DNA of 43,680 bases from Deltaproteobacteria bacterium (GCA_024640705.1 JAHEEJ010000001.1:1-43680), one strand, 5' to 3'; positions 4,905-29,516 are shown, counted from the stretch's first letter. A program made the numbers and translations. The notes: generated by a model from the sequence alone, not told the origin.

Positions 4905-4908
4905 GCGA

Positions 4909-12805: not shown

Positions 12806-12811
12806 CTAGAA

Positions 12812-14086
12812 TCAGCCCTGGGCCTGTCTTGGAGCCGGAGGGTCGAACTCGTCGAGTTGGTCGTAGTGCTCGCGGGCCACCACGACGATGCCACCCGGAC
12901 TGACCGCGAAGCGACTCCGGTCCCGCTCCGGATCCTCGCCGATCACTTCTCCGGCTGGGATCCGGACGCCCTTGTCGACGATGCAACGCCGCAGCCGCGC
13001 GTCGCGCCCCACATCGACTTGCGGGAAGAGCACGCTCTCCTGCACATCCGCGCGGCTGTGCACGTAGACCCCCTGGAAGGCCACGGTGCGGTTGATCCGG
13101 CCGCCCGACAGGATGGCTCCGGCGCCGACGACCGAGTCGGTGGCCATGCCGACGCGGCCATCGCCAGTATCGTTGAAGGTGAATTTCGCCGGACCGTGTG
13201 AGGGCAGCAGGCCGCGGATAGGCCACCCATCATTGTACAAGTTGAGCTTCGGCGAAACGGACACGACGTCCATGCTCGCCTCGAAGTACGCATCGAGGTC
13301 GCCGACGTCTCGCCAGTAGCCGCGCCCCCCCTCCGCTTCGCCGGTGCACAGGTGCGAGGTGAAATCGTACGCGAATACGGCCATCCGCTTGTGGGAAGTG
13401 CTCAGGATGTCGCGACCGAAGTCGTGGGTGGTCTGTTCAGCGGAGGCATTGCGCTTGAGTTCCTCGAGCAGTGCGGGGGTGCGGAAGATGTAGTTGCCCA
13501 TCGACACCAAAGCATGATCGGGCCTGCCCGGCATCGCGGGCGGATCGGCGGGCTTCTCGTGGAAGTCGGTGACGCGGCCGTCGTGGTCCACCGACAAACA
13601 GCCGAACGCGTGGGCCTCCGCTCGAGGCATGGGCAGCGTTGCGACGGTGAGATCCGCGCCAGCATTCCGATGCTTGGCCAACATTTGACGCACATCCATC
13701 TTGTAGACATGGTCCGCGCCAAACACCAGCACGTCCTGCGGGCGCTCTTCTCGCAGCAGGTCGATGTTCTGCCAGATGGCGTCTGCGGTGCCGCGAAACC
13801 ACGACGGCCCCAGGTTCATCGCCGCCGGGACCGGATCGATGAACTGATCGAGCACGCCGGGCGCCACCGACCAGGCTCGCGCCAGGTGCCGCACCAGCGA
13901 GGTGGCCCGGTACTGGGTCAGCACCTTGATGCGCAGCATGCGGCTGTTCACCAGATTGGACAGCACGAAGTCGATCAGCCGATACCGACCGCCGAAGTAG
14001 ACCGCTGGCTTGCTCCGCTCGCGCGTGAGCGGGTAAAGCCGCCGACCTTCACCGCCGGCGAGAACCAGTGCCAGTGTTCCGTGCAT
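12812..14086 (-). CDS. glgC: Glucose-1-phosphate adenylyltransferase
   Basis: LVLAGGEGRRLYPLTRERSKPAV, FGADHVYKMD, and a C-terminal hexapeptide-repeat region. The start was re-called to the ATG at 14086 (MHGTLALV), which has a GGAGGG RBS. The 92 codons upstream in the track ORF are Arg/Pro/Ala-rich and not GlgC-like. Confidence 0.93.
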   Translation of the reverse strand: MHGTLALVLAGGEGRRLYPLTRERSKPAVYFGGRYRLIDFVLSNLVNSRMLRIKVLTQYRATSLVRHLARAWSVAPGVLDQFIDPVPAAMNLGPSWFRGTADAIWQNIDLLREERPQDVLVFGADHVYKMDVRQMLAKHRNAGADLTVATLPMPRAEAHAFGCLSVDHDGRVTDFHEKPADPPAMPGRPDHALVSMGNYIFRTPALLEELKRNASAEQTTHDFGRDILSTSHKRMAVFAYDFTSHLCTGEAEGGRGYWRDVGDLDAYFEASMDVVSVSPKLNLYNDGWPIRGLLPSHGPAKFTFNDTGDGRVGMATDSVVGAGAILSGGRINRTVAFQGVYVHSRADVQESVLFPQVDVGRDARLRRCIVDKGVRIPAGEVIGEDPERDRSRFAVSPGGIVVVAREHYDQLDEFDPPAPRQAQG

Positions 14087-14109
14087 TTCCGCCCTCCCAG
14101 AATCCCTCG

Positions 14110-14115
14110 ATTGTA
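14110..14115 (-). promoter_or_regulatory. Candidate -10 hexamer (TACAAT) for the glycogen operon
   Basis: The minus strand reads TACAAT 23 nt upstream of the glgC ATG. The -35 at 17-nt spacing is weak (CGGGCA). Confidence 0.2.
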
Positions 14116-14360
14116 GGCGCAGATCCGCGGAGTGCCCGGCTGTCCTGGGGCGGAGCCCGATCTCGGGTAAGATCGCCGAGGATCTTGGGCGCAACGCCAA
14201 AATCGCGTCGATTCTGAGCCTGCCCGAAGCCGGGCCCGAACGCGCCGTCGGCGCTGACGATGCGGCAGCGACGGGAGCCGGTCGAGTGCCGCAAGGTGAC
14301 GATCGGCGGCCCTGCCGCAAAAATCTTCGAGCCGAGACAATCTTTGGGGCACGATCAAAC

Positions 14361-15401
14361 ATGAGAAGTGCACGGGTCGCGATCGCGATCGGGTGGGTGC
14401 TCGTCGCGCTCGGATGTCAGGGGCCGGGCGTGGCGCGAAAAGAGATCCCGGAGGATCCGATTGCGTTCATCTTTCACCCCGAAGACGAAGCCCGCCGCCG
14501 CGCAGAGGCGCGCGCAACGCGCGGGGCGGCGGAATCCCGACGCGGGCTCGACCATTCCGCGGTCGTCCATCTGAACACGTTTCGCGACTACCTCGCCAAG
14601 GCGTTTGGCGGCCGCGCGAATGACGAATTTGCGGGTCGGCTCTCCCTCCTCGATCCCAGGAGTCGGCAGGTGACGCCAATCGAGTCGGCGCGGGCGGGTG
14701 CGATTCCGCTTGCCTGGTCTCCCGGGCGCGATCGTCTGCTGTTCGCCCAGTGGGACCAGCAAACGCTTCAACTCTTCGAATTCGAGCGCGACTCGCAGAT
14801 CGTGTCCCAACTCACGAGAGGGCCCGACCATCACCCACAGGGCTGCTACGGGCCGGGCGGGCGACTGGTCGCGGCGGTCGCGAGGCGGCCGAAACCGGAG
14901 GAGGGCGGGGTGAGCCGGGCGAAGCTGGTCTCGCAGATTGCCGCATTGGGCCCGGGCGACGCGGTCGAACCGATCTCCGCGGGGCCGATGGACGGAGAGC
15001 CCGCCTGCAGCCCGGACGGCGCTGCGGTTGCCTACGTCCGGCTTTTCCCCGATCGGCGCAGCGAGATCTGGATCCACACCTTTGGAGGCGCAGAACCCGC
15101 CCGGGTGCTCGCCCAGGGCCGGGAACCTTCTTTTTCGCCGGATGGCGAGTGGATCGTCTACAGTCGGACCGTCGGCAAGACGCCCGCGCTATGGCGCATC
15201 CGCCGCGACGGCACCGGCCGCACCCGGATCGGGCGCGGATCCGGTGCGGAAGAGTACGGCCCGGCGGTTTCACCGGATGGCTCACTCGTGGTCTACGAGT
15301 CCGTATCGGGCAATCGCTATCGGCTCTTCGTGAGGCGGTTCGATGGATCCGGTGACACGGTTTTGTTCGCGGATGGAGATGGCAATCATGTTGTGTGGTA
15401 G
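14361..15401 (+). CDS. TolB-like / PD40 beta-propeller repeat periplasmic (lipo)protein
   Basis: Start re-called to the ATG at 14361. Signal peptide MRSARVAIAIGWVLVALGC with a lipobox-like LGC. Repeated SPDG motifs (CSPDGAAVAYV, SFSPDGEWIVYS, AVSPDGSLVVYES). Confidence 0.75.
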   Translation: MRSARVAIAIGWVLVALGCQGPGVARKEIPEDPIAFIFHPEDEARRRAEARATRGAAESRRGLDHSAVVHLNTFRDYLAKAFGGRANDEFAGRLSLLDPRSRQVTPIESARAGAIPLAWSPGRDRLLFAQWDQQTLQLFEFERDSQIVSQLTRGPDHHPQGCYGPGGRLVAAVARRPKPEEGGVSRAKLVSQIAALGPGDAVEPISAGPMDGEPACSPDGAAVAYVRLFPDRRSEIWIHTFGGAEPARVLAQGREPSFSPDGEWIVYSRTVGKTPALWRIRRDGTGRTRIGRGSGAEEYGPAVSPDGSLVVYESVSGNRYRLFVRRFDGSGDTVLFADGDGNHVVW

Positions 15402-16715: not shown

Positions 16716-19004
16716 CTAGACCATGCGAATACGGGGAGTCCCTGCGCGCGTGAGCAGGTCTTCGCGCGCTGTGCCCTCGGTCGGATAGAGCGCATATCCG
16801 AAGCTCAGCGCAATCCGGATCGGATCGTTGAGGGTGTTGTCCTTGGATATGTCGTCGGCGACTGCGCGAGCCAGCGCGTAGACGCGCTCTCCCGCCGAGT
16901 AGCCCGGGTCGGGCATGAGGATGGTAAATTCGCCCTTGCCGGTGCGGCCGATCACGTCGAAATCCCGCAGGTGATTGCGAAGCGCTTCGACGGCTCGCTG
17001 CACCACCTCGCGGGCGCGCCCCCGGCCCGTCGCATTCCGGATCTCATCGAGGTTCTCGAGCGAGCAAACCGCAATCGCGAGCGCGCCCTCGTGTTCCGAT
17101 GCGCGTGCAATTTCGTCGTCGATTCGCTTGTTCAGATAGCGCTCGTTGGGGAGGCCCGTCTCAGTCTCGAAATTTCGATATTGGCGCGCCTGGGCGTAGA
17201 AGTCCGCGTTGGTCACCGCCCGCTCGACATAGGACGCGAACTTCGTGAACAGTCCGAGGTCTTCCTGCGAAAAACGGCCAACGTAGAAGCGGTCGGCAAC
17301 GACCTTGTCGTAGATGGTGAGCGTTCCGATCACGCGGCCTTCTCGCATCAGTGGCGCTGCGATCGCGGACTGGAAGTCTGCGCGGAGTTCGCTCAGTGCG
17401 GCGTCGTCTGCGAGGTCGGCGATCAGATGGGGCGCGCGCTTCTTGATGACTTCGACGGCGATTCGCTTGTCCAGTCGGAACAACTGCTCCTGGAGTCGGC
17501 CATCTGCGGAACCGAAATAGGACCGGATCACATACCGCCGGGTTTCTTCATCCTGGATCCTGAGGATCGCGTGATCGGCTCCCAGTGCCATCGCGGCAGA
17601 CGAGGTTGCCATGCGCAGCACCTCGGCGGGATCGGTCGCGGAGATCATCCGGATTCCGGCTTCGTTGAGTGCACCCACCTTGGTGGCTTGGGAAGTCATG
17701 CTGGCTTCGCGCTCTGCGTGGGCGATCTCTTCAGCTGCCGCCGCGGCAATTTCGGACAGCGTTTCCTCGGCAGCGCGGCTGCCAGCCGCCTCGTTGCCAC
17801 CCTGGACGGATAGAACACCAAAGAGAGTATCGCCGGCAATCAGTGGAACGGCCGCGTAGGCGAGGTTGCCCTTCGCGGACCGCAAGATCGAAGGTTCTCG
17901 TGCCTGTGCGGCGGACCCATCGATGCCTCTGCCGATCTTGATCCGGTATTCGCCACCGAAACCGCCGCCTTCCAGCGAGGTCGCACTCAGTCGCAGATCC
18001 GTTTCGCCACTATCACGCAGGTAGATGGTCGCTATGCCATGGCCGACTTGTTCGGCGACGAAGAGGCAGAACGAGCGCAGTCGATCCGGAAGCGGATCTC
18101 TTCCCGACAGGATCTCCCGCACGCGCCGTACCGCGGTGTAGCGAGCGGCCTGACTCCGCAGGGCTTCGTGTTCCTGGGATCGGGCGATGATCTGGGCGTC
18201 GAGGTGTGCGAGCTGCTCGGCGAATTCGAGACTCTCATCCGAAAAGGCATCTGCCTGGGTCGAGTGGTGCAGATTGAGGACGCCGAGCACGCGGCCTTCG
18301 AAGATCAGCGGCACCGAGATGGCCGATTCGACGTCGAGGCGCTCGCGGACGATCTGGAAAGCCTGGCGATCGGCCTTGCCGCGAAGCCGGAGCGGGCGAG
18401 CGTCTGCGGCGACGCGGCCCGCAATGCCATGACCGATCGGAACCCGGATTTTGGGCCACAATTCGGGTTCGACACCCGCTGCGACCCGCACGCGAAGCTC
18501 GCGGGCAGCGTGATCCAACAACATCAGGGAGCCGCCCTCGGCACCGGTGACGGCGACGGCAATCTCGAGCACACGCGAAAAGAGTTCGTCCGCGTCGACG
18601 GTGAGGTTGTAGGACTCCACGATCTCGTGAAGCGCAGTCAGGAGATCGGCCTTGCTGTTCGGCGAGGTGCGACCGAAGCACCAGAGGAGGCGCGCGGTCA
18701 GGGGGGTGACGATCTGGACGCCTCGCTCGCTGAGGGCTGGGTGGCTCGCGGCAAAATCGCCGCTCGCGCTGGCATCAATCACGGCGTGAAGGTTCGTATC
18801 GAGAATCAGCGCGTCGAGATCGGTAGTCATGCACGCGTCCAACACGCGCGCGATGCCGGGATCGATTGCGCTGAAATGCTGCCGAATCGATTCGTCATCG
18901 GGCTCGACGATGGCGCCGATCTCGAACTCGGGATTTTCCAGCAGTGAGGGGATCAGCTGGCGCGCTTCTTCGGTTGCGCGATAGATGCCGATCCGCTTGC
19001 GCAT
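16716..19004 (-). CDS. Multi-GAF protein with C-terminal degenerate GGDEF domain (GKGEF) that retains an RxxD I-site
   Basis: 762 aa. GAF-like blocks (e.g. GGSLMLLD...VLGVLNL, LFGVLSVQGG, VIGTLTIYD). GGDEF-domain entry ETGLPNERYL. The sequence RDFDVIGRTGKGEF (16926-16967) has GKGEF in place of GGDEF. The ATG overlaps the upstream TGA by 1 nt. Confidence 0.8.
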   Translation of the reverse strand: MRKRIGIYRATEEARQLIPSLLENPEFEIGAIVEPDDESIRQHFSAIDPGIARVLDACMTTDLDALILDTNLHAVIDASASGDFAASHPALSERGVQIVTPLTARLLWCFGRTSPNSKADLLTALHEIVESYNLTVDADELFSRVLEIAVAVTGAEGGSLMLLDHAARELRVRVAAGVEPELWPKIRVPIGHGIAGRVAADARPLRLRGKADRQAFQIVRERLDVESAISVPLIFEGRVLGVLNLHHSTQADAFSDESLEFAEQLAHLDAQIIARSQEHEALRSQAARYTAVRRVREILSGRDPLPDRLRSFCLFVAEQVGHGIATIYLRDSGETDLRLSATSLEGGGFGGEYRIKIGRGIDGSAAQAREPSILRSAKGNLAYAAVPLIAGDTLFGVLSVQGGNEAAGSRAAEETLSEIAAAAAEEIAHAEREASMTSQATKVGALNEAGIRMISATDPAEVLRMATSSAAMALGADHAILRIQDEETRRYVIRSYFGSADGRLQEQLFRLDKRIAVEVIKKRAPHLIADLADDAALSELRADFQSAIAAPLMREGRVIGTLTIYDKVVADRFYVGRFSQEDLGLFTKFASYVERAVTNADFYAQARQYRNFETETGLPNERYLNKRIDDEIARASEHEGALAIAVCSLENLDEIRNATGRGRAREVVQRAVEALRNHLRDFDVIGRTGKGEFTILMPDPGYSAGERVYALARAVADDISKDNTLNDPIRIALSFGYALYPTEGTAREDLLTRAGTPRIRMV

Positions 19005-20062
19005 CAGCCGCTTTCTCCGTTGGGCTCGGGATCGAGCTGGATGGTGAGCACGAGATTCGATGTCCGGCCACTCTTGTCGCTGACGACGAGCGGGATGCGC
19101 ACGCCGCGCTCGCCACTTCGGGTGGCCTCTCCGACGGATGCAATCGAAAATTCGGAATCGAGTTGGACGGCCGCCGCCGGTTCGCCCTCGTCTTCGAGTT
19201 CGCCCCAGGGGATATCGAGCGCGGTCTGCGCGGATGCGGCCAGGTCGTCGATCAGATTGGCCTCGGGGTGCTCTTCTTCGGCGAGGATCGCGTCTTCCAT
19301 CCTGGCCGCTGCGCTGACTTCCGCAGCGGGAGCCGTCGGCGCGACCTCCTCGGCAGCGTCCATCGGCGTCGGTTCGGCAGCGGGTTCGATTGCCTCGGTC
19401 TGGATCGGTTCTGGCTGGGCCTGGAGGCCGCTGAGGCTGTCGCCGGGCTCCGCCTTGGCGTCGGTCTGGGCGGAGAACTGCTGGCCTCGCAGGCTGCGAA
19501 TCACGTGCTTGGAGAGCGTCGAAAGCGTCTGGAGGACACCCGAGTTCTCGGTCGCAATCGCCTCGAATACGGCGACTCCATTCATCCCGAGTTTCCGATG
19601 CAACTCTTCGATCGCATAGGGATCCGCTAGATCGCGCTTGTTGTATTGCAAGACGAGGGGAACGTCTTCGAGCTCGCGCCCGTAGTCGAGCAGCATCTTG
19701 CCGAGTTCGGCCAGGCTCGACGCGTTTTCTGCGATGCGCTCTCTTTGCGAATCGACCACCATCACGATGCCGTCTACCTGGTCGAGCAGCTGCTTTCGGG
19801 TGGGCGCCTGATTGGAGCCGCCCGGGACGGCGATCATTTGAATGCGGGTCTTCAACCCTCCGACTTCGCCGAGTTCGATGGCCAGGGTTTCGTATTCGAC
19901 CGCCGGATCGATCAGGGTGGCTTCGCGTTGAATCTCCCCGCGGTGATCCGCCCTGAGCTTGCGATGGATCGACTGTAGATTCGTGGTTTTGCCGGCTCCG
20001 TCGATCCCCCAGTAGAGGATTCGCGCGTTTACCGCGGTCTCGTCGGAGTTCATCTTGGCCAT
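19004..20062 (-). CDS. MglA-like Ras-superfamily small GTPase with a ~160-aa acidic C-terminal extension
   Basis: Start re-called to the ATG at 20062 (MAKMNSDETAVNARILYWG). P-loop GIDGAGKTT, LQYNKRD (NKxD), AVPGG in place of the MglA TVPGQ. Collinear with MglA as I remember it, over about residues 1-190. Confidence 0.8.
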   Translation of the reverse strand: MAKMNSDETAVNARILYWGIDGAGKTTNLQSIHRKLRADHRGEIQREATLIDPAVEYETLAIELGEVGGLKTRIQMIAVPGGSNQAPTRKQLLDQVDGIVMVVDSQRERIAENASSLAELGKMLLDYGRELEDVPLVLQYNKRDLADPYAIEELHRKLGMNGVAVFEAIATENSGVLQTLSTLSKHVIRSLRGQQFSAQTDAKAEPGDSLSGLQAQPEPIQTEAIEPAAEPTPMDAAEEVAPTAPAAEVSAAARMEDAILAEEEHPEANLIDDLAASAQTALDIPWGELEDEGEPAAAVQLDSEFSIASVGEATRSGERGVRIPLVVSDKSGRTSNLVLTIQLDPEPNGESG

Positions 20063-21168
20063 CAGACCTTCCCCTTCCTGGACAATATGCGGCGGGCGTG
20101 AGTGGAAATGACTCGCGAAACGTCTCGGCTTCGCATCAAATTGCGCAGATCCTTGTCCTGTAGGTAATTGACGAATTTCACCGCCATCGACTGCGGGCAC
20201 TTGGGGTTCGCGGCGAGGGCCAGTTTGATCTGGTAGTTGCGCGTCCAATCCTTGTTCATCGCAATTACGCGATACACCTCATCGCAGACGTTGCGCGACT
20301 GCGCGATCGCGATGATTTCGGACTCGGTGATCTTGGGGCTGGTGGCCACCGAAATTGCGACGAGTTTGTTGCGATCCCGTACGAGCAGACTGCGCGCCTC
20401 CTTGTTTCCCATTCGGCCGATCTGGATCTTCTGGAAGACGGTCATCTGCTGGACCAGCTGGAAGAGGTTGCCCTGCTGGAGTTCCTGGATCTGTTCCTCG
20501 GTAATGTCCTCGCCCTTCTCCTCGACGAGTTGTTTGACGTAGTGGCCCATTTCGTCGCCGAGTACCGCGCGCAGCGCGGCTTCGGCTTCCTGGTCGGTGA
20601 TTGCCGATTCGTCGCGCTGTCCGTCGAGATTCTCGGCGACTTCACTCGCTCCGATGAAATTGAGGATCCGCTCGATGACTGCGCGCCCCGTGAGGGGATT
20701 GGTGCCGAGCGCATCGACGATCTCGGGTGCGCGCAGTATGCGGTCCTGATTGTTCGAGATGATCTCCACGACCTTCTTGTGCGGCGAGGCGGCGAGCTTT
20801 GCAATCGTCGCATCGTCGGTCGCGGGGTTGAGGGCGATCATTTCGAGCTGGTCGGATTTGTCCGCGCGGCAGCCTGCAAAAAACGAGAGCAGGGCTGGAT
20901 GGCTCGGGCCGCTCAGCACGGCGTTCGTGATGGTTGCGGGCAGACTTTCGAGACTGTCGCGCGCGGTCGATTTGACTTCGGCGTCCGGATCGTGTGTCAG
21001 TGCGAAGAGCACGGTGGCGAGTTCGATTGCGGGCAGGGGCAGGGCGCCTTTCGCCGCCATCAGGCGCGTGTCTCGCGGAGCGTCCTGCCGCGCATAGCGC
21101 TCTGCGCGCTTGGACAGGGTCAAGCGGATCTTTTTCGCCTGTCGCTCCATTGACGCGCTTCCCCGCAT
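20062..21168 (-). CDS. All-alpha helical-repeat protein (HEAT/LRV-like), function unknown
   Basis: 368 aa. Recurrent helix-turn units containing NPxT/NPKCP turns (ALNPATDDATIAKLAASP, LGTNPLTGRAVIERIL, LAANPKCPQSMAVKFV). An alternative start is the ATG at 21150 (MERQAKK), with GGGGAAG upstream. Confidence 0.6.
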   Translation of the reverse strand: MRGSASMERQAKKIRLTLSKRAERYARQDAPRDTRLMAAKGALPLPAIELATVLFALTHDPDAEVKSTARDSLESLPATITNAVLSGPSHPALLSFFAGCRADKSDQLEMIALNPATDDATIAKLAASPHKKVVEIISNNQDRILRAPEIVDALGTNPLTGRAVIERILNFIGASEVAENLDGQRDESAITDQEAEAALRAVLGDEMGHYVKQLVEEKGEDITEEQIQELQQGNLFQLVQQMTVFQKIQIGRMGNKEARSLLVRDRNKLVAISVATSPKITESEIIAIAQSRNVCDEVYRVIAMNKDWTRNYQIKLALAANPKCPQSMAVKFVNYLQDKDLRNLMRSRDVSRVISTHARRILSRKGKV

Positions 21169-21221
21169 TCTCGCCGGGGCAGCGTGCCCCGACCCAAGGC
21201 CGGCCTTCGACCTCCGGCCGG

Positions 21222-23276
21222 CTATGCACCCTCCGCCGCGGCGGTCCCGACCTCGGCGATGACCTTCTCTTTGATGTGACTCGGTGCTTCGTCGTAATGG
21301 GAGAACTCCATGTGGAATTCCCCCTGTCCTCCGGTCATGCTCGTCAGCTGGCTCGCGTACTCGAGCATCTCTGACATCGGCACTTGTGCCTGGATGACCT
21401 GAGTCGAACCTTTCGCTTCACTCGATTGGACCCGGCCGCGCCGGCTCGAGAGATCCCCCATGATGTCGCCCACGAAGGTTCCCGGGATCGAGACTTCGAC
21501 GTCCATCACGGGCTCGAGCAGGACCGGTTTCGCCTTCTGGACGGCCGCCTTGAGGCCAAAAGACCCCGCAAGCTTGAACGCCATCTCGTTCGAGTCCACG
21601 GCGTGGTGTTTGCCATCGATGCAGTGGACCCGGACATCGACGACCGGGTAGCCGGCGAGGGGTCCGGCCTCGCAGGCCGCGTAGATCCCCTTCTCGACAG
21701 CCGGGATCAGGCTCCTGGGGATGGAGCCGCCCTTGATTTCGTCCACGAACTCGATTCCTTCCCCGCGGGGCTTCGGCTCGACGGTGAGGTAACAGACGCC
21801 GAACATCCCCTTGCCTCCGGTCTGCTTCTTGAGCTTTCCCTCTACGTTCTCGGCTCGGCGCGTGATGGTCTCGCGGTAGGGGACCTTCGGTCTCTTCAGC
21901 TCGACATCGACCCCGAACAAGCGTTGTAGTTTTTGCATCGTGATCCGGACGTGAAGCTCGCCCATCCCGGTGAGAAGGAACTCGCCGGTGGAGGCTTCTC
22001 GGCCGAGGTGGAGGGTCGGATCTTCCTCCACGAGTCGGCCGAGCGAGGCGTAAACTTTATCCTCATCCCCCTTTGATTTCGCTGAGATGGCGTATGAAAT
22101 GACACCCTGCGGAATCGGGATCTCACGCAGCGTGGGGGCGCCTTTTTCCGCCGTGAGCACGTCTCCCGTGTGGGTGTCCTTGAGCTTCGCAACGGCGACG
22201 ATGTCGCCCGGGCCGGCTGAATCGACTTCCACGTGTTCGATGCCCCGCAGCAGCTGGAGCTTGCCGAAGCGCTCCCGCTGATCTCGCGTGGGGTTCAGCA
22301 CGTTCGAGTCCGAGTGCGCGGTTCCGGAGACCACCCGAAACACCGACAGTGCCCCCGCGTAGCGATCGATGACGGTCTTGAATACCACTGCCGCAAACGG
22401 CGCATCGGGATCGGCGGCCACGGGTTCACCGTTGGCATCCTTCCAGGGCCTGCGGTCGGCGGCCGAAGGCAGCAGTTGAATGGCCCCCTGCATGAGCGTT
22501 TCGACGCCGAGTTCCGAGAGCGCCGCGCCACAGAAGACCGGCGTCACCTGACGGCCGTGGGTCGCGATGACGAGGCCCTTTGCGACTTCCGCATCCGTGA
22601 GTTCGCCCTCTTCGAGGTATTTCTCGAGCAGGGAATCGTCGCACTCGGCTACGGCCTCGACGAGTTGCGCGCGTGCGTCGGCGGCCGCTTCTGCGAGTTC
22701 GCTCGGGATCTCCGATTCTCCGGACGCAGTCATCGCCTTCATCTTCAGCAGGTCGATGACGCCCTTGAAGTCGTCGCCGTGGCCGATCGGCAGGCTGACG
22801 GCCACCGGATTGGCACCCAACTGCTTCAGTGCGTCGATCATGGCCGGGAAGTCACTTCGCTCTTTGTCCAATGCGTTGACGAACGCGAGCAGCGGAATCT
22901 CCTTCGATCGACAGAATTTCCACATGCGCTGGGTTCCCACCTTGGGTCCGGAGGCCGCGGACACCAGCAGGATCGCTCCGTCGAGCGCGCAGAGTGCAAT
23001 GCGTCCGTCGGCCTGGAAATTGGAATCCCCTGGAGTGTCGACGAGCGTGAGGTGCTTGCCCGACCATTCGAAGCCGAAGACGGATGAGGTCAGGGTGGAC
23101 TGGCGCTCCTTCTCCTCGGGAAGCGTGCTCAGGTGTGAGGTCCCTTCGGTGACGATTCCCAACGAGGTGGTCGCGCCCGCGCGATGCAGGATGGCTTCGC
23201 CGAGCGAAGTCTTGCCATCGCCTGTGTGTCCGATCAGTGCAAAGCAGTGGGTATCGTTGACCTTCACGTCTTTCAT
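21222..23276 (-). CDS. Elongation factor G paralogue (EF-G II-like translational GTPase)
   Basis: 684 aa with EF-G domain order. G1 GHTGDGKTS, G3 DTPGDSNF, G4 NALD. Domain IV/V segments (GMGELHV, HAVDSNEMAFK). GAAGGAGG RBS. Confidence 0.88.
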   Translation of the reverse strand: MKDVKVNDTHCFALIGHTGDGKTSLGEAILHRAGATTSLGIVTEGTSHLSTLPEEKERQSTLTSSVFGFEWSGKHLTLVDTPGDSNFQADGRIALCALDGAILLVSAASGPKVGTQRMWKFCRSKEIPLLAFVNALDKERSDFPAMIDALKQLGANPVAVSLPIGHGDDFKGVIDLLKMKAMTASGESEIPSELAEAAADARAQLVEAVAECDDSLLEKYLEEGELTDAEVAKGLVIATHGRQVTPVFCGAALSELGVETLMQGAIQLLPSAADRRPWKDANGEPVAADPDAPFAAVVFKTVIDRYAGALSVFRVVSGTAHSDSNVLNPTRDQRERFGKLQLLRGIEHVEVDSAGPGDIVAVAKLKDTHTGDVLTAEKGAPTLREIPIPQGVISYAISAKSKGDEDKVYASLGRLVEEDPTLHLGREASTGEFLLTGMGELHVRITMQKLQRLFGVDVELKRPKVPYRETITRRAENVEGKLKKQTGGKGMFGVCYLTVEPKPRGEGIEFVDEIKGGSIPRSLIPAVEKGIYAACEAGPLAGYPVVDVRVHCIDGKHHAVDSNEMAFKLAGSFGLKAAVQKAKPVLLEPVMDVEVSIPGTFVGDIMGDLSSRRGRVQSSEAKGSTQVIQAQVPMSEMLEYASQLTSMTGGQGEFHMEFSHYDEAPSHIKEKVIAEVGTAAAEGA

Positions 23277-23296
23277 CTGGGCCTCCTTCGAGCGGC

Positions 23297-24091
23297 TTAT
23301 GAATTGGACCGGTTCTTTTCAAAAATCAACCTGAGGCCTTCCAGTGTCAGGAAGGGCTCGACTCGATCGATGACTCTGCATTCGGCGGAAACCCGGCCCG
23401 CGAGCCCGCCGGTGGCGACCACCCGGGCGTCGGCTCCGAGTTCGCCGCGAATTCGCTCGACCATCGAGTCCACGACTCCTGCGAATCCGTAGAGGAGCCC
23501 GGATTGGAGGGCCCCGGTCGTGGTCTTTCCGATCACACTGCGCGGACGCACGAGTTCGACCTGGTGGAGCATCGAGGCGCGCTCGAACAGCGCGGCCATC
23601 GAGGTGTGGATCCCCGGGAAGATGGCGCCGCCGAGGTACTCGCCGTCCTTCGACACACAGTCGAAGGTCGTCGCCGTGCCGAAGTCGACCGCAATCACCG
23701 GGCCTCCGAGCAGTTCGAATGCGGCCAGTGAATTGACGATCCGATCGGCGCCGACCTCGCGTGGGTTGTCGTAACGCACGGGGATGCCGGTGCGGATGCC
23801 CGGGCCGACCACGAGGGGCGGGCGCCCGAAGAGCTTGGTCGAGACCCGCTCCCAGATCGGGAGCAGCGGTGGCACCACGCTCGAGATCACGATGTCCGTG
23901 ACTTCCCCGCAATCGCGATCGACGTGCCGAAACAGCTCACGCACCGTCAGTGCGGTCTCATCCGACGTTTGCTCGCGATGGGTGCCGATGCGCCAGTGTT
24001 CGGAAAGCGTGGCCGCGCCGCTGGCGGGATAGTCGAAAACTCCCAGGGATACGTTCGTGTTCCCGATGTCGATGGCGAGTAGGGTGGTCAA
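23297..24091 (-). CDS. coaX: Type III pantothenate kinase
   Basis: LLAIDIGNTN and VIAVDFGTATTFD motifs. Start re-called to the TTG at 24091, which has AAGGAGAG upstream and overlaps the birA TGA (TTGA). The upstream 71 codons of the track ORF are Arg-rich junk. Confidence 0.88.
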   Translation of the reverse strand: MTTLLAIDIGNTNVSLGVFDYPASGAATLSEHWRIGTHREQTSDETALTVRELFRHVDRDCGEVTDIVISSVVPPLLPIWERVSTKLFGRPPLVVGPGIRTGIPVRYDNPREVGADRIVNSLAAFELLGGPVIAVDFGTATTFDCVSKDGEYLGGAIFPGIHTSMAALFERASMLHQVELVRPRSVIGKTTTGALQSGLLYGFAGVVDSMVERIRGELGADARVVATGGLAGRVSAECRVIDRVEPFLTLEGLRLIFEKNRSNS

Positions 24092-25086
24092 TGGCTCTCC
24101 TTGGCCAGCGTTACATCGCCTGCGATCACCCGGATCACGTCTCCGGTTTCCAGTTGGAGACGCAACGCGCCATCGCCGTCGATGCCCAGCGCGGTTCCGC
24201 GGCGTTCGCAACCGTCGAGTTCGAGCACGCTGACCTGCTGGCCGCGCATCTGGAAGCGCGCATCGAACTTGTCGCGCACGCCATCGAAGCCGCGGTCCGC
24301 GCAAACGTCCAGGGTCCCTTCGAGGTTACCGTACAGACGCCTCGCGAATGCCAATCGATCGACGGGGCGACCGCTGTGGCTCGCGAGGCTCGTCGCGCGG
24401 TCTCGGAACTCGTCGGGGAACTGGTTGCGGTCGACATTGAGGTTGACGCCGATTCCGAGCACCAGGAAGTCGACCCGGGTGGCCTCGGCGCCGAGTTCCA
24501 TCAGGATTCCAGAAGTCTTGAGGCCGCCGAGCAGCACGTCATTCGGCCATTTGATCGAGACATCGCCCGCCTTTCCGAGCGTCTGTTCGATGGTCTCGGC
24601 AACGGAAACCGCCGCTGCGAGGATCCAGCTCGGTGCTTCTGCGGTGTGGATTCTGGGCCGCAGGACGATCGAGGTGTAGAGGTTCGCGGAGGGGGGAGAG
24701 AAGAAGGAGCGCCCGAGGCGGCCCCTCCCGGCCGTCTGTTGATCCGCGACGACGGTGGTTCCGTGGGCGGCGCCGGATCGCGCGAGATCGAGCGCGACCC
24801 GATTGGTGGAATCGACGGTCTCGAAGTAGTGGATCTCCGTCGCGAGCCAGCTGGTTTCCAGGCCGGTCTGGATCTCTTCTACGTAGAGGCGATCGGGAAT
24901 CTCGGCAAGTCGATAGCCGCCGCCCGGATCGCCATCGATCGTGTAGCCGCGAGCTCGCAACGCTTCGACGTGTTTCCACACCTGTGCGCGCGTTACCCCA
25001 AGTCGGGACGAGAGCACTTCACCTGAACAGGTTTCACCACCGGCGCGGCGGAGAGCATCGAGAATGCGCGCCGGGCCGCCCGTCAC
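24088..25086 (-). CDS. birA: Bifunctional biotin-[acetyl-CoA-carboxylase] ligase / biotin operon repressor
   Basis: N-terminal wHTH (ILDALRRAGGETCSGEVLSSRLGVTRAQVWKHVEALR). GRGRxGR motif in ADQQTAGRGRLGRSF. GTG start overlapping the nadC TGA (GTGA). Confidence 0.9.
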   Translation of the reverse strand: MTGGPARILDALRRAGGETCSGEVLSSRLGVTRAQVWKHVEALRARGYTIDGDPGGGYRLAEIPDRLYVEEIQTGLETSWLATEIHYFETVDSTNRVALDLARSGAAHGTTVVADQQTAGRGRLGRSFFSPPSANLYTSIVLRPRIHTAEAPSWILAAAVSVAETIEQTLGKAGDVSIKWPNDVLLGGLKTSGILMELGAEATRVDFLVLGIGVNLNVDRNQFPDEFRDRATSLASHSGRPVDRLAFARRLYGNLEGTLDVCADRGFDGVRDKFDARFQMRGQQVSVLELDGCERRGTALGIDGDGALRLQLETGDVIRVIAGDVTLAKESH

Positions 25087-25967
25087 GCGGGAGCCCTCCC
25101 TGGTTTGGCGACCACGTCCTCGATTTCCAGCGCGACATCCGCCGCGGGTGCAGAATGGGTCAGGGCACCGATGGAGATGCGATGCACGCCGGTCTCGGCG
25201 ATTTCACGCACATTGCCGAGGTGAACGCCGCCCGAGACCTCGAGCTGGGCGCGGTCCGCGAGTTGTGCGGCGATGGCTCGCATTTCGGCCGGCGTGCGGT
25301 TGTCGAGCAGCAGGTAGTCGGCGCCCGACTCGACCGCCTCGATCGCTTGCGCTTCGCTCTCGACTTCGACGCAAACCCGCAGGTTCGCGGGCGCGGCGGC
25401 GAGCGCGGCTTTGACCGCGAGCCCCACGCCTCCGGCGATCGCGACGTGATTGTCCTTGAGCAAGATGCCGTCGTACAAGCCGACGCGGTGGTTCGTGGCG
25501 CCGCCCACTGCGGTCGCGTATTTGTCGAGGCCCCTCCAGCCGGGCAGGGTCTTGCGCGTGTCGACGATGCGAACGCCCGTGCCCTTCACGGCGTCGACAA
25601 AACGGTGTGTCCAGGTTGCGACGCCGCACATTCGCATCAGGAAATTCAGCGCCGTTCGTTCGGCGGCGAGGATGCCGCGCAGATCTCCCTGTACGGTTGC
25701 CAGGATGTCTCCGGGTTCCGCCTGCTCGCCGTCGCGGATCAGGGTTCGAAGCTGGAGCTGGGCATCGATTTCGCGAAACACCGCGAACGCGATCTCGAGT
25801 CCGCACACGACCAGGGGCTGGCGGGCTTCGATGATCGCAGAGCCCTGGCGGCCGGCCTCTACGACCAGGGGTGTCGTCGCGTCGCCGGCGCCGATGTCCT
25901 CGCCGACCGCCAATTCGACGAGCGGAAACCAGGTTCGCTCCGGCGGGAGGGCCGGCGGAAAACCCAT
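25083..25967 (-). CDS. nadC: Nicotinate-nucleotide diphosphorylase (carboxylating)
   Basis: AERTALNFLMRMCGVAT, DTRKTLPGWRGLDKYA, GILLKDNH. Start re-called to the ATG at 25967. Confidence 0.9.
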   Translation of the reverse strand: MGFPPALPPERTWFPLVELAVGEDIGAGDATTPLVVEAGRQGSAIIEARQPLVVCGLEIAFAVFREIDAQLQLRTLIRDGEQAEPGDILATVQGDLRGILAAERTALNFLMRMCGVATWTHRFVDAVKGTGVRIVDTRKTLPGWRGLDKYATAVGGATNHRVGLYDGILLKDNHVAIAGGVGLAVKAALAAAPANLRVCVEVESEAQAIEAVESGADYLLLDNRTPAEMRAIAAQLADRAQLEVSGGVHLGNVREIAETGVHRISIGALTHSAPAADVALEIEDVVAKPGRAPA

Positions 25968-26165
25968 GTGAGCTCCATCGGCCCGTTGTGATGGCGAGAC
26001 GCTGCACGCGCAGCGCGCGCCGTCGGACACCCCGGGGGCCGGGCGGGGGAAGTCGAGGATAGCCGAAGCGAACGCGAGCGGTTCAGTGGATCGCAAACGC
26101 GAGGGTGGGGCGCATCGGAGGGGGGAATCGGCGATCGGAGTCCGTCCCGCCCATCGGCGGCCGGA

Positions 26166-27641
26166 TCAGCCCTCCTCGGGCTCGGACTTCATCCTGCGGA
26201 TCTCTTCCTGGATCAGGGTTTCGGCCATCCGCGGGATGACCTCCCAGGCGATCGATTCGACCCGCTCCACCGACTGGCGGACGATCGCTTCCGTGAGTTC
26301 CCCGAAAGACTCCCAGGCAATCTTCTCCAGGGTGTCGTGGAGTTGCTGGCGCAATTCGGGCCCGATCGACGCCATCAGCGCTTCCGCCCGATCGGCGGCC
26401 GGCTCGGCAGCCTTGCCCGGAGCGGGCGCTGCGTAGAGGTCGGCGGCGATATCGGCGGGCGCCTCTTCGACCACCGCGACTGCGACGGGCTCGACCGGTG
26501 GCGGCGCGCTAAAGCCCTCGTATACCGGGTCATGGCTCACGACCGTGGTGAGGTCGCTCGCGAGCGGGGCCGATTCGAACGGGTCCGTATCCGCTCCCGC
26601 ATTGGTTTCGGGCAGCGCTTCGGGAGCCAGCACCGTCATCTCCGCTTCATCCGCGCGGGGCGTCTCGATCGGAGGCGAGCTGGGCCGGGTATCGGTGATC
26701 GGCGGCCCGAGATCGGATGACGAGACGTCGTAGCCGGATGCGCCGAGCGGATCGATCACGGTGGCGTGCGCAAAGTCATTGGCATCCACAGGCGGCACCA
26801 GGTCGAGATCGGCGAGCGGATCGGTCGGGTTTTCCGCAAGCGCGAAGTCGAAGGGCTGGTCACCGCTGCGGCTGGCGTCCGGGGCCAGCGAATCGTCGAG
26901 GCCATCGTCATCGAGGACCAGATCCGCTGCGGCGGTGGGCGCCGGTTCGAGTTCGACGCCGAACGGAACGGCGTTGCCGAACGAGCTGGCGGCATCGACA
27001 GCGACGGGTTCCGCCTGGATCGCGACTGCCGGCGTGACGGGCGCCGGTTTTTTCGGCACCGCTGCGGGCGCGCCGAGGTCGTCGTCGCCGAAGGAGAAAT
27101 CGCTGGCAGGATCCTGGAACTCGAGATCGCTTCCATCGTCGAGAGAGGTCTGCGCGGGCGTGATGTCGGGCGCGCCCATCTCGTCGTCGAAAAAGTCGAA
27201 AGCGCCTGCATCATCAGCCAGATCGGGCTGCGATTCTACGGCAGGTGCTGGAGTCGGTCGCGGGCTTGCCGCGGTTGCTTCGATCAGGCTTCGGACCTGG
27301 GCGACGAGGGATTGCGCTTCGAAGGGTTTGGCGATGTGGCCCGCCGAGCCCACGCTGCGCGCGCGCGGCTCGTCGAAGGCTTCGAACGTTCCGGTCAGCA
27401 GCAACACCGGAATGTGCGCGAGCTCGGGATTGGCTTTGATGGCCGCGCAGACCTCGTAGCCGTTCTTGCCGGGCATCACGACATCCGCGAGCACGATGTC
27501 GGGGCGGAGTTCCTGGGTCTTGATGATCGCATCGTCGCCGTTGTCGACGGTCACGACGGTGGCGTCTTCGCTGGCGAAGCTGATCGCCACGACCTTCTGG
27601 ATCGTGACGCTGTCGTCAGCCAATAAAATCGTCTTCGGCAT
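26166..27641 (-). CDS. Response regulator: receiver domain + long acidic/Pro-rich linker + conserved C-terminal helical tail (RomR-like architecture)
   Basis: Start re-called to the ATG at 27641 (MPKTILLADDSVTIQK), with a G-rich RBS. Receiver motifs LLADD, LADVVMPGKNGYE, LLLTGTFEAFDE, AKPFE. A ~300-aa low-complexity D/E/P/A linker follows. The C-terminus has a duplicated IAWE motif (EKIAWESFGELTEAIV / ESIAWEVIPRMAETLIQEEIRR). Confidence 0.7.
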   Translation of the reverse strand: MPKTILLADDSVTIQKVVAISFASEDATVVTVDNGDDAIIKTQELRPDIVLADVVMPGKNGYEVCAAIKANPELAHIPVLLLTGTFEAFDEPRARSVGSAGHIAKPFEAQSLVAQVRSLIEATAASPRPTPAPAVESQPDLADDAGAFDFFDDEMGAPDITPAQTSLDDGSDLEFQDPASDFSFGDDDLGAPAAVPKKPAPVTPAVAIQAEPVAVDAASSFGNAVPFGVELEPAPTAAADLVLDDDGLDDSLAPDASRSGDQPFDFALAENPTDPLADLDLVPPVDANDFAHATVIDPLGASGYDVSSSDLGPPITDTRPSSPPIETPRADEAEMTVLAPEALPETNAGADTDPFESAPLASDLTTVVSHDPVYEGFSAPPPVEPVAVAVVEEAPADIAADLYAAPAPGKAAEPAADRAEALMASIGPELRQQLHDTLEKIAWESFGELTEAIVRQSVERVESIAWEVIPRMAETLIQEEIRRMKSEPEEG

Positions 27642-27887: not shown

Positions 27888-28622
27888 ATGATACTCCGAT
27901 CAGCCGCCCGAACCGATGTTGGCCGCCGACGTCGGGCCAACGAGGACTGCTACGCGATCGCCGCGGAATTGGGGTATTTCGTCGTCGCCGATGGAATGGG
28001 GGGCCACAAGGCCGGCCAGCTCGCCAGCCGACTCGCCGCCGAAGCAGCCGTGGCCGCGCTCGAAGCCCTCGAAGGCTCGGCGGCGACGCTCACCGAAAAA
28101 TTGAGATGCACGATCGCCGCCGCGAATCGGGAGATCTACGTCGCCGCTCAGGCCAAGCCCGAATACTCCGGTATGGGGACGACGCTCGTTTCGCTGCTGG
28201 CCGTGGAGGGTCGGGTTGCGCTCGCACACGTAGGAGACAGCCGCGCTTATCTGGTCCGTGGCGGCCGTATTCGACAACTCACCGATGATCACTCGGTCGT
28301 CGGCGAACTCGTTCGACGCCGCGAGATCACGGAGTTGGCCGCTCGCGAACATCCGCACCGGCACGTGCTGACCCGAGCGATCGGTGTGCGGCGCGAGGTC
28401 GCTCCCGATCTGGCGGAGTTGACCTCGTCTCCTGGGGATCTCTTCGTGCTCTGTTCCGACGGTCTGACCGGTCTCGTCCACGACGAAGAAATTGCCGAGG
28501 CTGCGAACACCGGCAGCGACCTCGACACGATCTGCGAGCAACTCGTCGATCTTGCAAACGAGCGCGGCGGTGAGGACAACATCACGGTCGTCGTCGTCCG
28601 CTACGAGAAGGAATCCGCCTGA
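27888..28622 (+). CDS. PP2C-family Ser/Thr protein phosphatase
   Basis: RTDVGRRRRANEDC, VVADGMGGHKAG, LCSDGL, GGEDNITVVVV. Confidence 0.9.
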   Translation: MILRSAARTDVGRRRRANEDCYAIAAELGYFVVADGMGGHKAGQLASRLAAEAAVAALEALEGSAATLTEKLRCTIAAANREIYVAAQAKPEYSGMGTTLVSLLAVEGRVALAHVGDSRAYLVRGGRIRQLTDDHSVVGELVRRREITELAAREHPHRHVLTRAIGVRREVAPDLAELTSSPGDLFVLCSDGLTGLVHDEEIAEAANTGSDLDTICEQLVDLANERGGEDNITVVVVRYEKESA

Positions 28623-28661: not shown

Positions 28662-29426
28662 CTAGCGATCCAGCATCCCCTTGAGCTTGGCTCGCAGTCG
28701 CAGTACGGACTTGGTGTGAATCTGACAGACCCGCGATTCCGTGATGCCGAGGATCGATCCGATTTCCTTCATGTTGAGATCTTCGTAGTAGTAGAGCGAA
28801 ATGACCAGGCGCTCCTTTTCGGGAAGCGTCCCGATCGTATCCGCGATCACCTGCTTGCTCTCGGCGAGCTTGAGTGAGGCGAACGGGTTCTCGGAATTCA
28901 CGTCTTCGACGATGTCGCTGAAGGTGCCCGTGCGATCGCCGTCGGAGTTGGTTCCACGAATTTCTTCGAGATTCACCAGGGAAATACCGCGCACCTGGTT
29001 GAGGAGTTCATGGAATTTATCGATCTGGATGCCGAGTGAATCCGCGACCTCGTCTTCGCTCGCGGTACGTCCCAGGCGTTGCTCGACCTCGCCGTAAGCG
29101 CGCTCGAGTTTTCGGCTCTTCTGGCGAACGCTGCGCGGCACCCAGTCCATCGAGCGGAGTTGGTCGAGAATTGCACCCTTGATGCGGAACTCTGCGTAGG
29201 TCTTGAACTTGCAGTTCTTCTCGGGGTCGTACTTGTCGATCGCGTCCATCAAACCGATCACGCCCGTATTGTGCAGATCGTCGAGATCGATGTGAGAGGG
29301 CAGTCGAACCGCGATGCGATTGACGATGTAACGGATCAGCGGCGTGTGCTCGAGCACGATCTGCTCTTTGAGCAACGGGGGGACCTCGGAACTCTGTTCT
29401 TTGGCTTCTCTGAGCAGACCTTCCAT
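28662..29426 (-). CDS. FliA/WhiG-type (group 3, sigma-28-like) RNA polymerase sigma factor
   Basis: Start re-called to the ATG at 29426, with a GAGGAGAGG RBS. Region 2: GVIGLMDAIDKYDPEKNCKFKTYAEFRIKGAILDQLR. Region 4.2 HTH: LNMKEIGSILGITESRVCQIHTKSVLRLR. Confidence 0.85.
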   Translation of the reverse strand: MEGLLREAKEQSSEVPPLLKEQIVLEHTPLIRYIVNRIAVRLPSHIDLDDLHNTGVIGLMDAIDKYDPEKNCKFKTYAEFRIKGAILDQLRSMDWVPRSVRQKSRKLERAYGEVEQRLGRTASEDEVADSLGIQIDKFHELLNQVRGISLVNLEEIRGTNSDGDRTGTFSDIVEDVNSENPFASLKLAESKQVIADTIGTLPEKERLVISLYYYEDLNMKEIGSILGITESRVCQIHTKSVLRLRAKLKGMLDR

Positions 29427-29516
29427 GAATGAATTCCTCTCCTCGGCTGACGGAATGCTTCGGGCCCCGGGGCACTCGGCGAGTTGCCGCCTCATGCCCG
29501 TTGGTTGCGCAGAGAA

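Follow-up and report, generated by a model that had tools for sequence, protein, structure and literature searches.

Among bacterial polarity switches, the MglA/MglB/RomR system has received the most study, and the locus described here raises the question of whether an MglA-like G protein, encoded in one row with a RomR-like regulator, a helical-repeat protein and a degenerate GGDEF protein, belongs to a joint signalling module that feeds into this switch. The window, i.e. the whole stretch of DNA that was analysed, comprises 43,680 nucleotides (contig C416) of a metagenome-assembled genome (MAG; 3.68 Mb, 88% complete), which the source labels of close homologues assign to uncultured Myxococcota. 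A preliminary description of this window had placed the four component types on one strand between positions 16716 and 27641, separated only by nadC, birA, coaX and a paralogue of elongation factor G (EF-G), and had likened them to the protein-interaction hub of Bdellovibrio. Open reading frames (ORFs), Pfam and PDB matches and the gene order bear this inventory out: all real genes between 27641 and 16716 lie on the minus strand, in the 5' to 3' order romR, nadC, birA, coaX, EF-G paralogue, helical-repeat gene, MglA-like gene, and a gene whose product combines three GAF domains with a GGDEF domain. The hub had been described correctly as well: it consists of MglA, the tetratricopeptide repeat (TPR) protein Bd2492, RomR and CdgA, all encoded by dispersed genes (PMC3983030).

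The last three genes of this row, hereafter the trio, appear to encode a form of MglA-type signalling that has not been described before, with a non-hydrolysing G protein at its centre, and we consider this predicted unit the most solid new object of the locus. We estimate the probability that the trio works as a joint signalling module of MglA type at about 0.5.

A gene trio with conserved junctions and a nested distribution

In the window, the trio consists of the genes for a HEAT/ARM-like helical-repeat protein (20062..21168), an MglA-family G protein (19004..20062) and the GAF/GGDEF protein (16716..19004), all on the minus strand. Both junctions read TGATG, with stop and start overlapping by 1 nt and a purine-rich stretch before each, and the modal spacing at both junctions across related loci is likewise -1 nt. 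In about 50 genomes with both coordinates listed, the G protein gene starts 0-150 bp after the helical-repeat gene, the one exception being a contig break. We read the three genes as a strictly coupled unit, most probably a translationally coupled operon.

The preliminary description had looked to co-occurrence across genomes, and the row is indeed not a one-off. When species-representative genomes were scanned, 80 loci were obtained, all from uncultured MAGs at species level, in which the order FliA/PP2C/RomR/nadC/birA/coaX/EF-G paralogue/helical-repeat protein/MglA-like protein/GGDEF protein recurs wherever the flanks reach far enough. A survey of 301 Myxococcota genomes, in which orthologues of the GGDEF protein were called at E <= 1e-40, furthermore revealed three nested distributions. 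The helical-repeat family, with 3315 representatives at E <= 0.001, is phylum-wide and was present in 266 of the 301 genomes (~88%). The clade of the window's MglA-like protein was found in about 53, belonging to the window's class and to families f32 and f60, and the GGDEF partner in 46, all within the window's class and nearly all with the gene directly after that for the MglA-like protein. In two outgroup lineages that carry the pair of helical-repeat and MglA-like genes, phoH and a gene of the 7TM-HD type come next in place of the GGDEF gene.

An MglA-family G protein predicted to be hydrolysis-dead

Counted from MAKMNSD, the product of the second trio gene shares 37% identity with MglA of M. 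xanthus (E 1e-34, phmmer against the PDB). In the mechanical listing of long ORFs the starts lie too far upstream; the correct ones are M63 in the case of this GTPase and M75 in the case of RomR. The AlphaFold2 (AF2) model of the protein (predicted local distance difference test score, pLDDT, 82.8) found MglA-GTPgammaS (6h17) as its best Foldseek match, with a template modelling (TM) score of 0.90, and the scores against 6izw and 6h17 together span 0.89-0.90. Its GTPase-like domain (residues 10-200) is followed by a linker that is acidic and disordered, and then by three helices (251-292) and a sheet of three strands (306-342).

The catalytic positions of MglA are replaced in this copy (R53 by P, T54 by A and Q82 by G), and its nucleotide-binding motifs, the P-loop GIDGAGKT and NKRD, are intact. 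In an alignment of MglA-family members from 20 Myxococcota genomes, all copies adjacent to a helical-repeat gene were without the switch-1 motif DRTLFFD, which contains Arg53 and Thr54, and without VPGQ, which contains Gln82; all other MglA paralogues of these genomes retain both. The copies without these motifs form one monophyletic clade (support 100/99). Among 76 orthologues, the P-loop GxxGxGK is mostly kept and NKRD is present in 65, and R53 and Q82 occur in none; of the 9 + 76 members of the clade that were examined, not one has either residue.

On contig C261, the same genome has a canonical mglB gene beside a canonical mglA, the product of which shares 79% identity with M. xanthus MglA; the MglB matches Robl_LC7 at 50 bits. 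This mglB is the only Robl_LC7 gene of the genome and adjoins the canonical mglA; the copy in the window is preceded by the HEAT-like gene and not by mglB. Of the features that characterise Group 1 of the MglA family (Wuichet & Sogaard-Andersen 2014), the window copy thus has the fold and the guanine-nucleotide binding motifs G1 and G4, and it lacks the intrinsic arginine finger (R53), the catalytic Gln (Q82) and a coupled mglB. The preliminary description's MglA-like GTPase therefore holds at the level of the family (37% identity, TM score 0.90) and fails as an identification with MglA itself, given the loss of R53, T54 and Q82 and the canonical mglBA on C261. Judged by its residues, the protein is a hydrolysis-dead MglA-family paralogue, which we call pseudo-MglA. 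Because Arg53, Thr54 and Gln82 are lost, we predict that stimulation by a GTPase-activating protein of the MglB type cannot work on it.

SofG was considered as an identity and rejected: SofG has an arginine finger at the position of MglA R53, which is needed for its GTPase activity (PMC4316618), the window protein has Pro in its place, and the pseudo-MglA clade is separate from all clades of arginine-bearing paralogues. An arginine-bearing paralogue with ~53% identity to MglA was observed in genome G240 (L085, G240:C1, 7047340-7055891), 3 kb from the canonical mglA; the distance of both from the HEAT-like gene is about 25 kb.

Loss of catalytic residues might also mark a decaying duplicate heading for loss, in a cluster that has no joint function. 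In line with such decay, some copies have additionally lost the P-loop Lys or NKxD, the length of the acidic disordered linker varies between lineages from 60 to 650 residues, and genus g26 has lost the pseudo-MglA gene. Yet about 130 genomes have an undisrupted reading frame. Of the columns in an alignment of 50 sequences, 26 are invariant and 46 nearly so, and these include columns of the conserved, folded C-terminal module; the fold of the window copy is predicted with confidence. The overlapping start/stop junctions are conserved, too, and the clade is old, as it spans several families and two further lineages. Decay of the MglA-like gene is thus already contradicted by the conservation data, and we regard it as hardly credible.

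The longest linkers, of about 550-650 residues, were seen in outgroup proteins of 885 residues (L024, 11243-13897) and 745 residues (L025, 4789-7023), both of which retain the GTPase-like domain and a C-terminal module of about 45 residues.

A predicted cyclic di-GMP receptor

The third trio gene encodes a protein of 762 residues with an N-terminal domain (residues 1-120), three GAF domains (three stretches matching Pfam GAF), of which the first is the best-conserved part of the whole protein, and a GGDEF domain. Its motif RDFD-VIGRT-GKGEF places an RxxD inhibitory site (I-site) five residues upstream of a degenerate active site (A-site). Not one of 64 orthologues has GG[DE]EF, and 42 different A-site pentapeptides occur among them, while RxxD is kept in 63. 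Because the A-site drifts in all orthologues and the RxxD site persists, we predict that the protein is a receptor of cyclic di-GMP (c-di-GMP) with a catalytically dead GGDEF domain. An active diguanylate cyclase was rejected, as the A-site reads GKGEF and not GG(D/E)EF. The degenerate GGDEF domain of the preliminary description was confirmed in this way, and its signature is of the type found in CdgA of Bdellovibrio, a c-di-GMP-binding protein in which GVNEF is paired with an RxxD site (PMC3271064).

In genus g11, what follows the pseudo-MglA gene is a GGDEF gene reduced to short pieces of its N- and C-terminal parts (L190, G021:C38, ~2866-3669), and a copy with 37% identity is located on another contig.

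A two-lobed solenoid of the HEAT/ARM type

No Pfam or NCBIfam family matches the 368-residue product of the first trio gene. Its AF2 model (mean pLDDT 88.7) has two solenoid lobes, at residues ~20-175 and 192-365, with a disordered linker between them, and the profile of its family matches alphaRep and the HEAT repeats of PP2A-A. Weak Pfam matches within the family are to HEAT_2 and LRV, and TPR was matched in 0 of 46 members. A Foldseek search of the model against the PDB returned only generic matches to importin-alpha and PP2A-A (best E 5e-3, TM score < 0.3), and we therefore name no specific structural relative. The model describes a HEAT/ARM-like two-lobed solenoid.

The helical repeat claimed for this protein was hence recovered as a solenoid, and not as one of the Bd2492 type. 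Identity with Bd2492/SgmX-type TPR proteins was rejected in view of the missing TPR signal, the HEAT-like profile and the neighbourhood, in which tamAB is absent: the row contains no DUF490 or Omp85 gene (tamA/tamB-like).

A RomR-family regulator heads the row

The first gene of the row (26166..27641, minus strand) encodes an N-terminal receiver (REC) domain (Pfam Response_reg, E 2e-20), a linker of about 300 residues that is rich in Pro, Ala, Asp and Glu and has no domain match, and a helical RomR-C tail ending ...IAWEVIPRMAETLIQEEIRRM. The phospho-acceptor Asp is residue 53, counted from MPKTILL, and thus carries the same number as D53 of M. xanthus RomR. Over 38 residues, the tail is 50% identical (tblastn) to that of a REC protein from genome G240, which is the reciprocal-best match of the window protein and whose gene is the one immediately upstream of valS. 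The romR gene of M. xanthus (MXAN4461) has the corresponding position next to the gene for valyl-tRNA synthetase (PMC2034494). A hidden Markov model (HMM) of RomR-C, built from six tails of other Myxococcota with the window sequence excluded, matches the window ORF at E 2.5e-9; this is the sole match in the genome, the next best being at E 0.28. On account of the tail match beside valS, the HMM match and Asp53, we assign the protein to the RomR family as a true member and, by the same search, as the only one of this genome, in agreement with the preliminary description. RomR co-occurs here with the canonical mglB-mglA on contig C261. The REC proteins of family f15 (L048, L052) differ from it in their tail and were left out of the RomR count.

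romR lies about 5 kb upstream of the trio on the same strand, with four genes (nadC, birA, coaX and the EF-G paralogue) between them. An ORF bearing RomR-C precedes nadC in 51 of the 80 related loci. In the outgroup genome G044, a protein made up of REC, an acidic linker and a helical tail precedes nadC, coaX, the helical-repeat gene and pseudo-MglA. In families without pseudo-MglA, romR is located hundreds of kb from the helical-repeat gene (750 kb in G240) or on another contig. The co-localisation of romR with the trio is real, old, lineage-specific and more than chance.

Weighing a joint module and its tie to RomR

A number of observations weigh against a joint MglA-type module tied to RomR. 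In the trio itself, five genomes of the window's class have the helical-repeat/pseudo-MglA pair and no GGDEF gene, and the receptor is therefore dispensable. Moreover, with the P-loop Lys or NKxD missing from a few clade members, nucleotide binding by pseudo-MglA may not matter. One such copy, which reads QYHQIE in place of NKxD (L189, G108:C41, 387-1211), still occupies its place between the helical-repeat and the GGDEF gene, and it is for this reason that nucleotide binding may be dispensable.

The HEAT-like gene also adjoins genes of coenzyme A (CoA) and pantothenate metabolism (coaX, panBC) and EF-G in several lineages, which allows a role outside polarity. The HEAT-like protein could then have a general function connected with translation factors or CoA and biotin metabolism, to which pseudo-MglA and the GGDEF receptor were added as lineage-specific regulators. 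The near-universal presence of the HEAT-like family in the phylum, far wider than that of pseudo-MglA, would fit this explanation, as would its neighbours: coaX is the commonest of them, with coaX-helical adjacency recurring in several other Myxococcota families, panB-panC follows the helical-repeat gene in G041, and an EF-G paralogue precedes it in the window's class and, independently, in genome G216. On the other hand, ARM/HEAT solenoids are without catalytic features, the adjacency of the gene to birA-coaX may be old synteny, and the tightest and strictly conserved partner of the helical-repeat gene is an MglA-family protein. In genome G120 (L105, G120:C2, 1698-4002), moreover, mglB, mglA (the product 84% identical to MglA of M. 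xanthus) and the helical-repeat gene are contiguous on one strand, the only case seen in which this gene directly follows a true mglBA, and two other families have it at a distance of 4-25 kb from mglBA: in G041 and G065 it is found 4 kb downstream, with ftsEX-envC between and panBC after it, and in family f22 it is 11-25 kb from mglA. These cases of proximity to mglBA are leads, not proof, for an association between the HEAT-like family and MglA. Taking both sides together, we consider a general, non-polarity role of the HEAT-like protein unlikely.

As an observation on this neighbourhood, the gene is repeatedly found near pantothenate and CoA genes, with coaX upstream in many lineages and panBC in G041, where the locus (L030, G041:C12, 4756-12925, one strand) reads mglB, mglA, a GH113 gene, ftsE, ftsX, an M23 peptidase gene, the HEAT-like gene, panB and panC.

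The link to RomR is the more exposed part of our interpretation, as it may be gene order inherited from a single rearrangement. The four genes between romR and the trio (nadC, birA, coaX and the EF-G paralogue) are as syntenic as romR itself. The RomR-C HMM found no significant match in the REC proteins of the outgroups G044 and G292 (E 0.14-1.4; 0.14 in the case of the G044 tail), and the occurrence of romR at the head of the row outside the window's class is accordingly judged from REC similarity and architecture. The trio might hence be a real module beside which romR has stayed after one ancestral rearrangement, with RomR serving the canonical MglA/MglB pair only. This explanation is a serious contender, somewhat short of even odds. 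It accommodates that nadC, birA, coaX, FliA and PP2C are likewise arranged in one conserved order in these 80 loci, that romR is set apart from the trio by four unrelated genes and an intergenic gap, that romR of G240 adjoins valS as it does in M. xanthus, and that the order birA-coaX-helical or coaX-helical occurs in families which have neither pseudo-MglA nor an adjacent romR and predates the arrival of both in the row. It accounts less readily for the occurrence of romR in the row only in lineages with pseudo-MglA (the window's class and probably G044) and for the survival of the row through divergence down to about 42% GTPase identity. RomR and the MglA paralogue, furthermore, share one known functional circuit. 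The row is also unsplit by any minus-strand terminator-like site, all terminator-like sites of the scan being on the plus strand; a promoter scan found no sigma-70-like site, which says little beyond the row being unsplit.

Since the intervening housekeeping genes are equally conserved, gene order by itself does not tell a functional link from an inherited one. A functional tie of the trio to RomR is plausible and suggestive, resting on one conserved gene arrangement, and we propose it only tentatively.

Proposed mechanism and its significance

Our model of a joint module starts from observed features, namely the gene identities, the loss of catalytic residues, the conservation of the I-site, the coupling of the genes, their nested distribution and the synteny with romR; the protein contacts, the binding of nucleotide and of c-di-GMP, the link to polarity and the functional link to RomR are what we infer. 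Unable to cycle, pseudo-MglA would be permanently 'on' or would act as a nucleotide-independent adaptor. It could bind the HEAT-like protein as a scaffold, in the way in which ARM/HEAT proteins bind small GTPases, and the GAF/GGDEF protein would sense c-di-GMP, perhaps together with a GAF ligand, and thereby gate the complex. This complex might then plug into the canonical MglA/MglB/RomR circuit encoded elsewhere in the genome, e.g. by competing for partners of MglA-GTP or for RomR.

In the widest form of this model, the HEAT-like family would be a phylum-wide partner of MglA-family proteins, as effector, regulator or scaffold, which in the window's lineage has been combined with a dead MglA and a c-di-GMP receptor beside romR, and the level of a second messenger would thus be wired into the polarity switch via a non-cycling G protein. 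We regard this extension as doubtful.

Several ATPases of the type II secretion system (T2SS)/type IV pilus (T4P) type are encoded in the host genome, and no gene for FlhA (FHIPEP) was found in this 88%-complete genome. A pilus-related or polarity role of the module is therefore possible.

Our literature searches found no description of such a trio or of a bacterial pseudoGTPase of the MglA type. Should the model hold, pseudo-MglA would be the first such protein as far as these searches show, and the trio in its row with romR is a concrete and testable candidate for an input of c-di-GMP to the MglA/MglB/RomR switch. The HEAT-like family is present in most sampled Myxococcota, so that cultured species are likely carriers; the complete trio has so far been seen in uncultured lineages only.

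Other genes of the row and the window

The genes between romR and the trio, all on the minus strand, start with nadC (25083..25967; quinolinate phosphoribosyltransferase, Pfam QRPTase_C/N, E 1e-51), a housekeeping gene that is syntenic in all related loci. It is followed by birA (24088..25086), the housekeeping gene for a biotin ligase/repressor (Pfam BPL_LplA_LipB, HTH_11 and BPL_C), and by coaX (23297..24100) for a type III pantothenate kinase (Pfam Pan_kinase, E 2e-69), the start of which is placed approximately and falls within the end of birA. The EF-G paralogue (21222..23276) has all five EF-G domains (Pfam; NCBIfam NF009381, 818 bits) and altered G motifs, as its translation reads DTPGD in place of the DTPGH of EF-G and NALD in place of NKxD. 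It sits between coaX and the helical-repeat gene in most related loci, and in the distant genome G216 (L039) a paralogue with 45% identity to the window copy directly precedes the helical-repeat gene.

Upstream of the row, a gene for a PP2C-type Ser/Thr phosphatase (27888..28622, plus strand; Pfam PP2C) diverges from romR and forms a conserved flank, which most of the 80 loci have at the corresponding position. Beyond it lies a gene for a FliA-type sigma factor (28662..29495, minus strand; Pfam Sigma70 r2/r3/r4) that is 75-95% identical in related loci. Because FlhA was not found, a flagellar role of this factor is unlikely, and it may have a non-flagellar regulon. The rest of the window is devoted to glycogen metabolism, with a complete row of glgP, malQ, glgB, a glgX-like gene, glgA and glgC at 2469-14362 (minus strand), and to NtrC-type regulators.

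Comparison with known systems

The components of the M. xanthus MglA/MglB/RomR-RomX switch, in which RomR localises to the poles and acts with RomX as a guanine nucleotide exchange factor on MglA, provide a first point of reference. The RomR-family protein of the window shares with M. xanthus RomR the REC domain with Asp53, the unstructured linker and RomR-C, and pseudo-MglA shares the fold of M. xanthus MglA (TM score 0.90 to 6h17). Unlike MglA, however, it has an extra tail of 160 residues and is coupled to a HEAT-like protein instead of MglB. A link to PomY, another HEAT-containing protein of M. xanthus, was considered as well, but PomY differs in size and context from the HEAT-like protein of the window. 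SofG, which acts with bactofilins, resembles pseudo-MglA as an orphan, extended MglA-family paralogue without MglB in Myxococcota, but it has kept the arginine finger and hydrolyses GTP (PMC4316618), whereas the window copy is predicted to be dead.

Similarly, the third trio protein has the dead A-site and the RxxD motif at canonical spacing that characterise degenerate-GGDEF receptors such as CdgA, PopA, PelD and SgmT. It differs from them in its N-terminal domain of unknown type, its three GAF domains and its strict position after an MglA-family gene, and its binding of c-di-GMP is a prediction. A further parallel is offered by eukaryotic pseudoGTPases (Rnd/RhoH) and by the ARM/HEAT partners of small GTPases (importin, SmgGDS, formin GTPase-binding domain), in which a non-hydrolysing GTPase fold with nucleotide motifs and a solenoid partner are likewise found; this is an analogy of logic only, with no homology beyond general folds.

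The analogy with the hub at the invasive pole of Bdellovibrio bacteriovorus, with which the comparison began, is supported in part. By component type there is a match: both sets contain RomR, a protein of helical repeats, a degenerate GGDEF domain with RxxD five residues ahead of the dead A-site, and a G protein of the MglA family that has no MglB encoded beside it. By orthology the analogy is not supported, RomR alone being a clear family member. MglA of Bdellovibrio (Bd3734) is the sole MglA of that organism and has its GTP-binding residues, whereas the window's G protein appears to be dead and exists beside a normal mglBA. Bd2492/SgmX1 is a TPR protein whose gene heads a tamAB operon, in contrast to the HEAT/ARM-like protein of the window with its different neighbours, and the contact between Bd2492 and RomR was not reproduced in a 2024 study (PMC11025332). 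The likeness between the window's GGDEF protein, with its three GAF domains, and CdgA (Bd3125) is confined to the receptor signature. Finally, the genes of the Bdellovibrio hub are dispersed over the genome, whereas those of the window are clustered in a single row.

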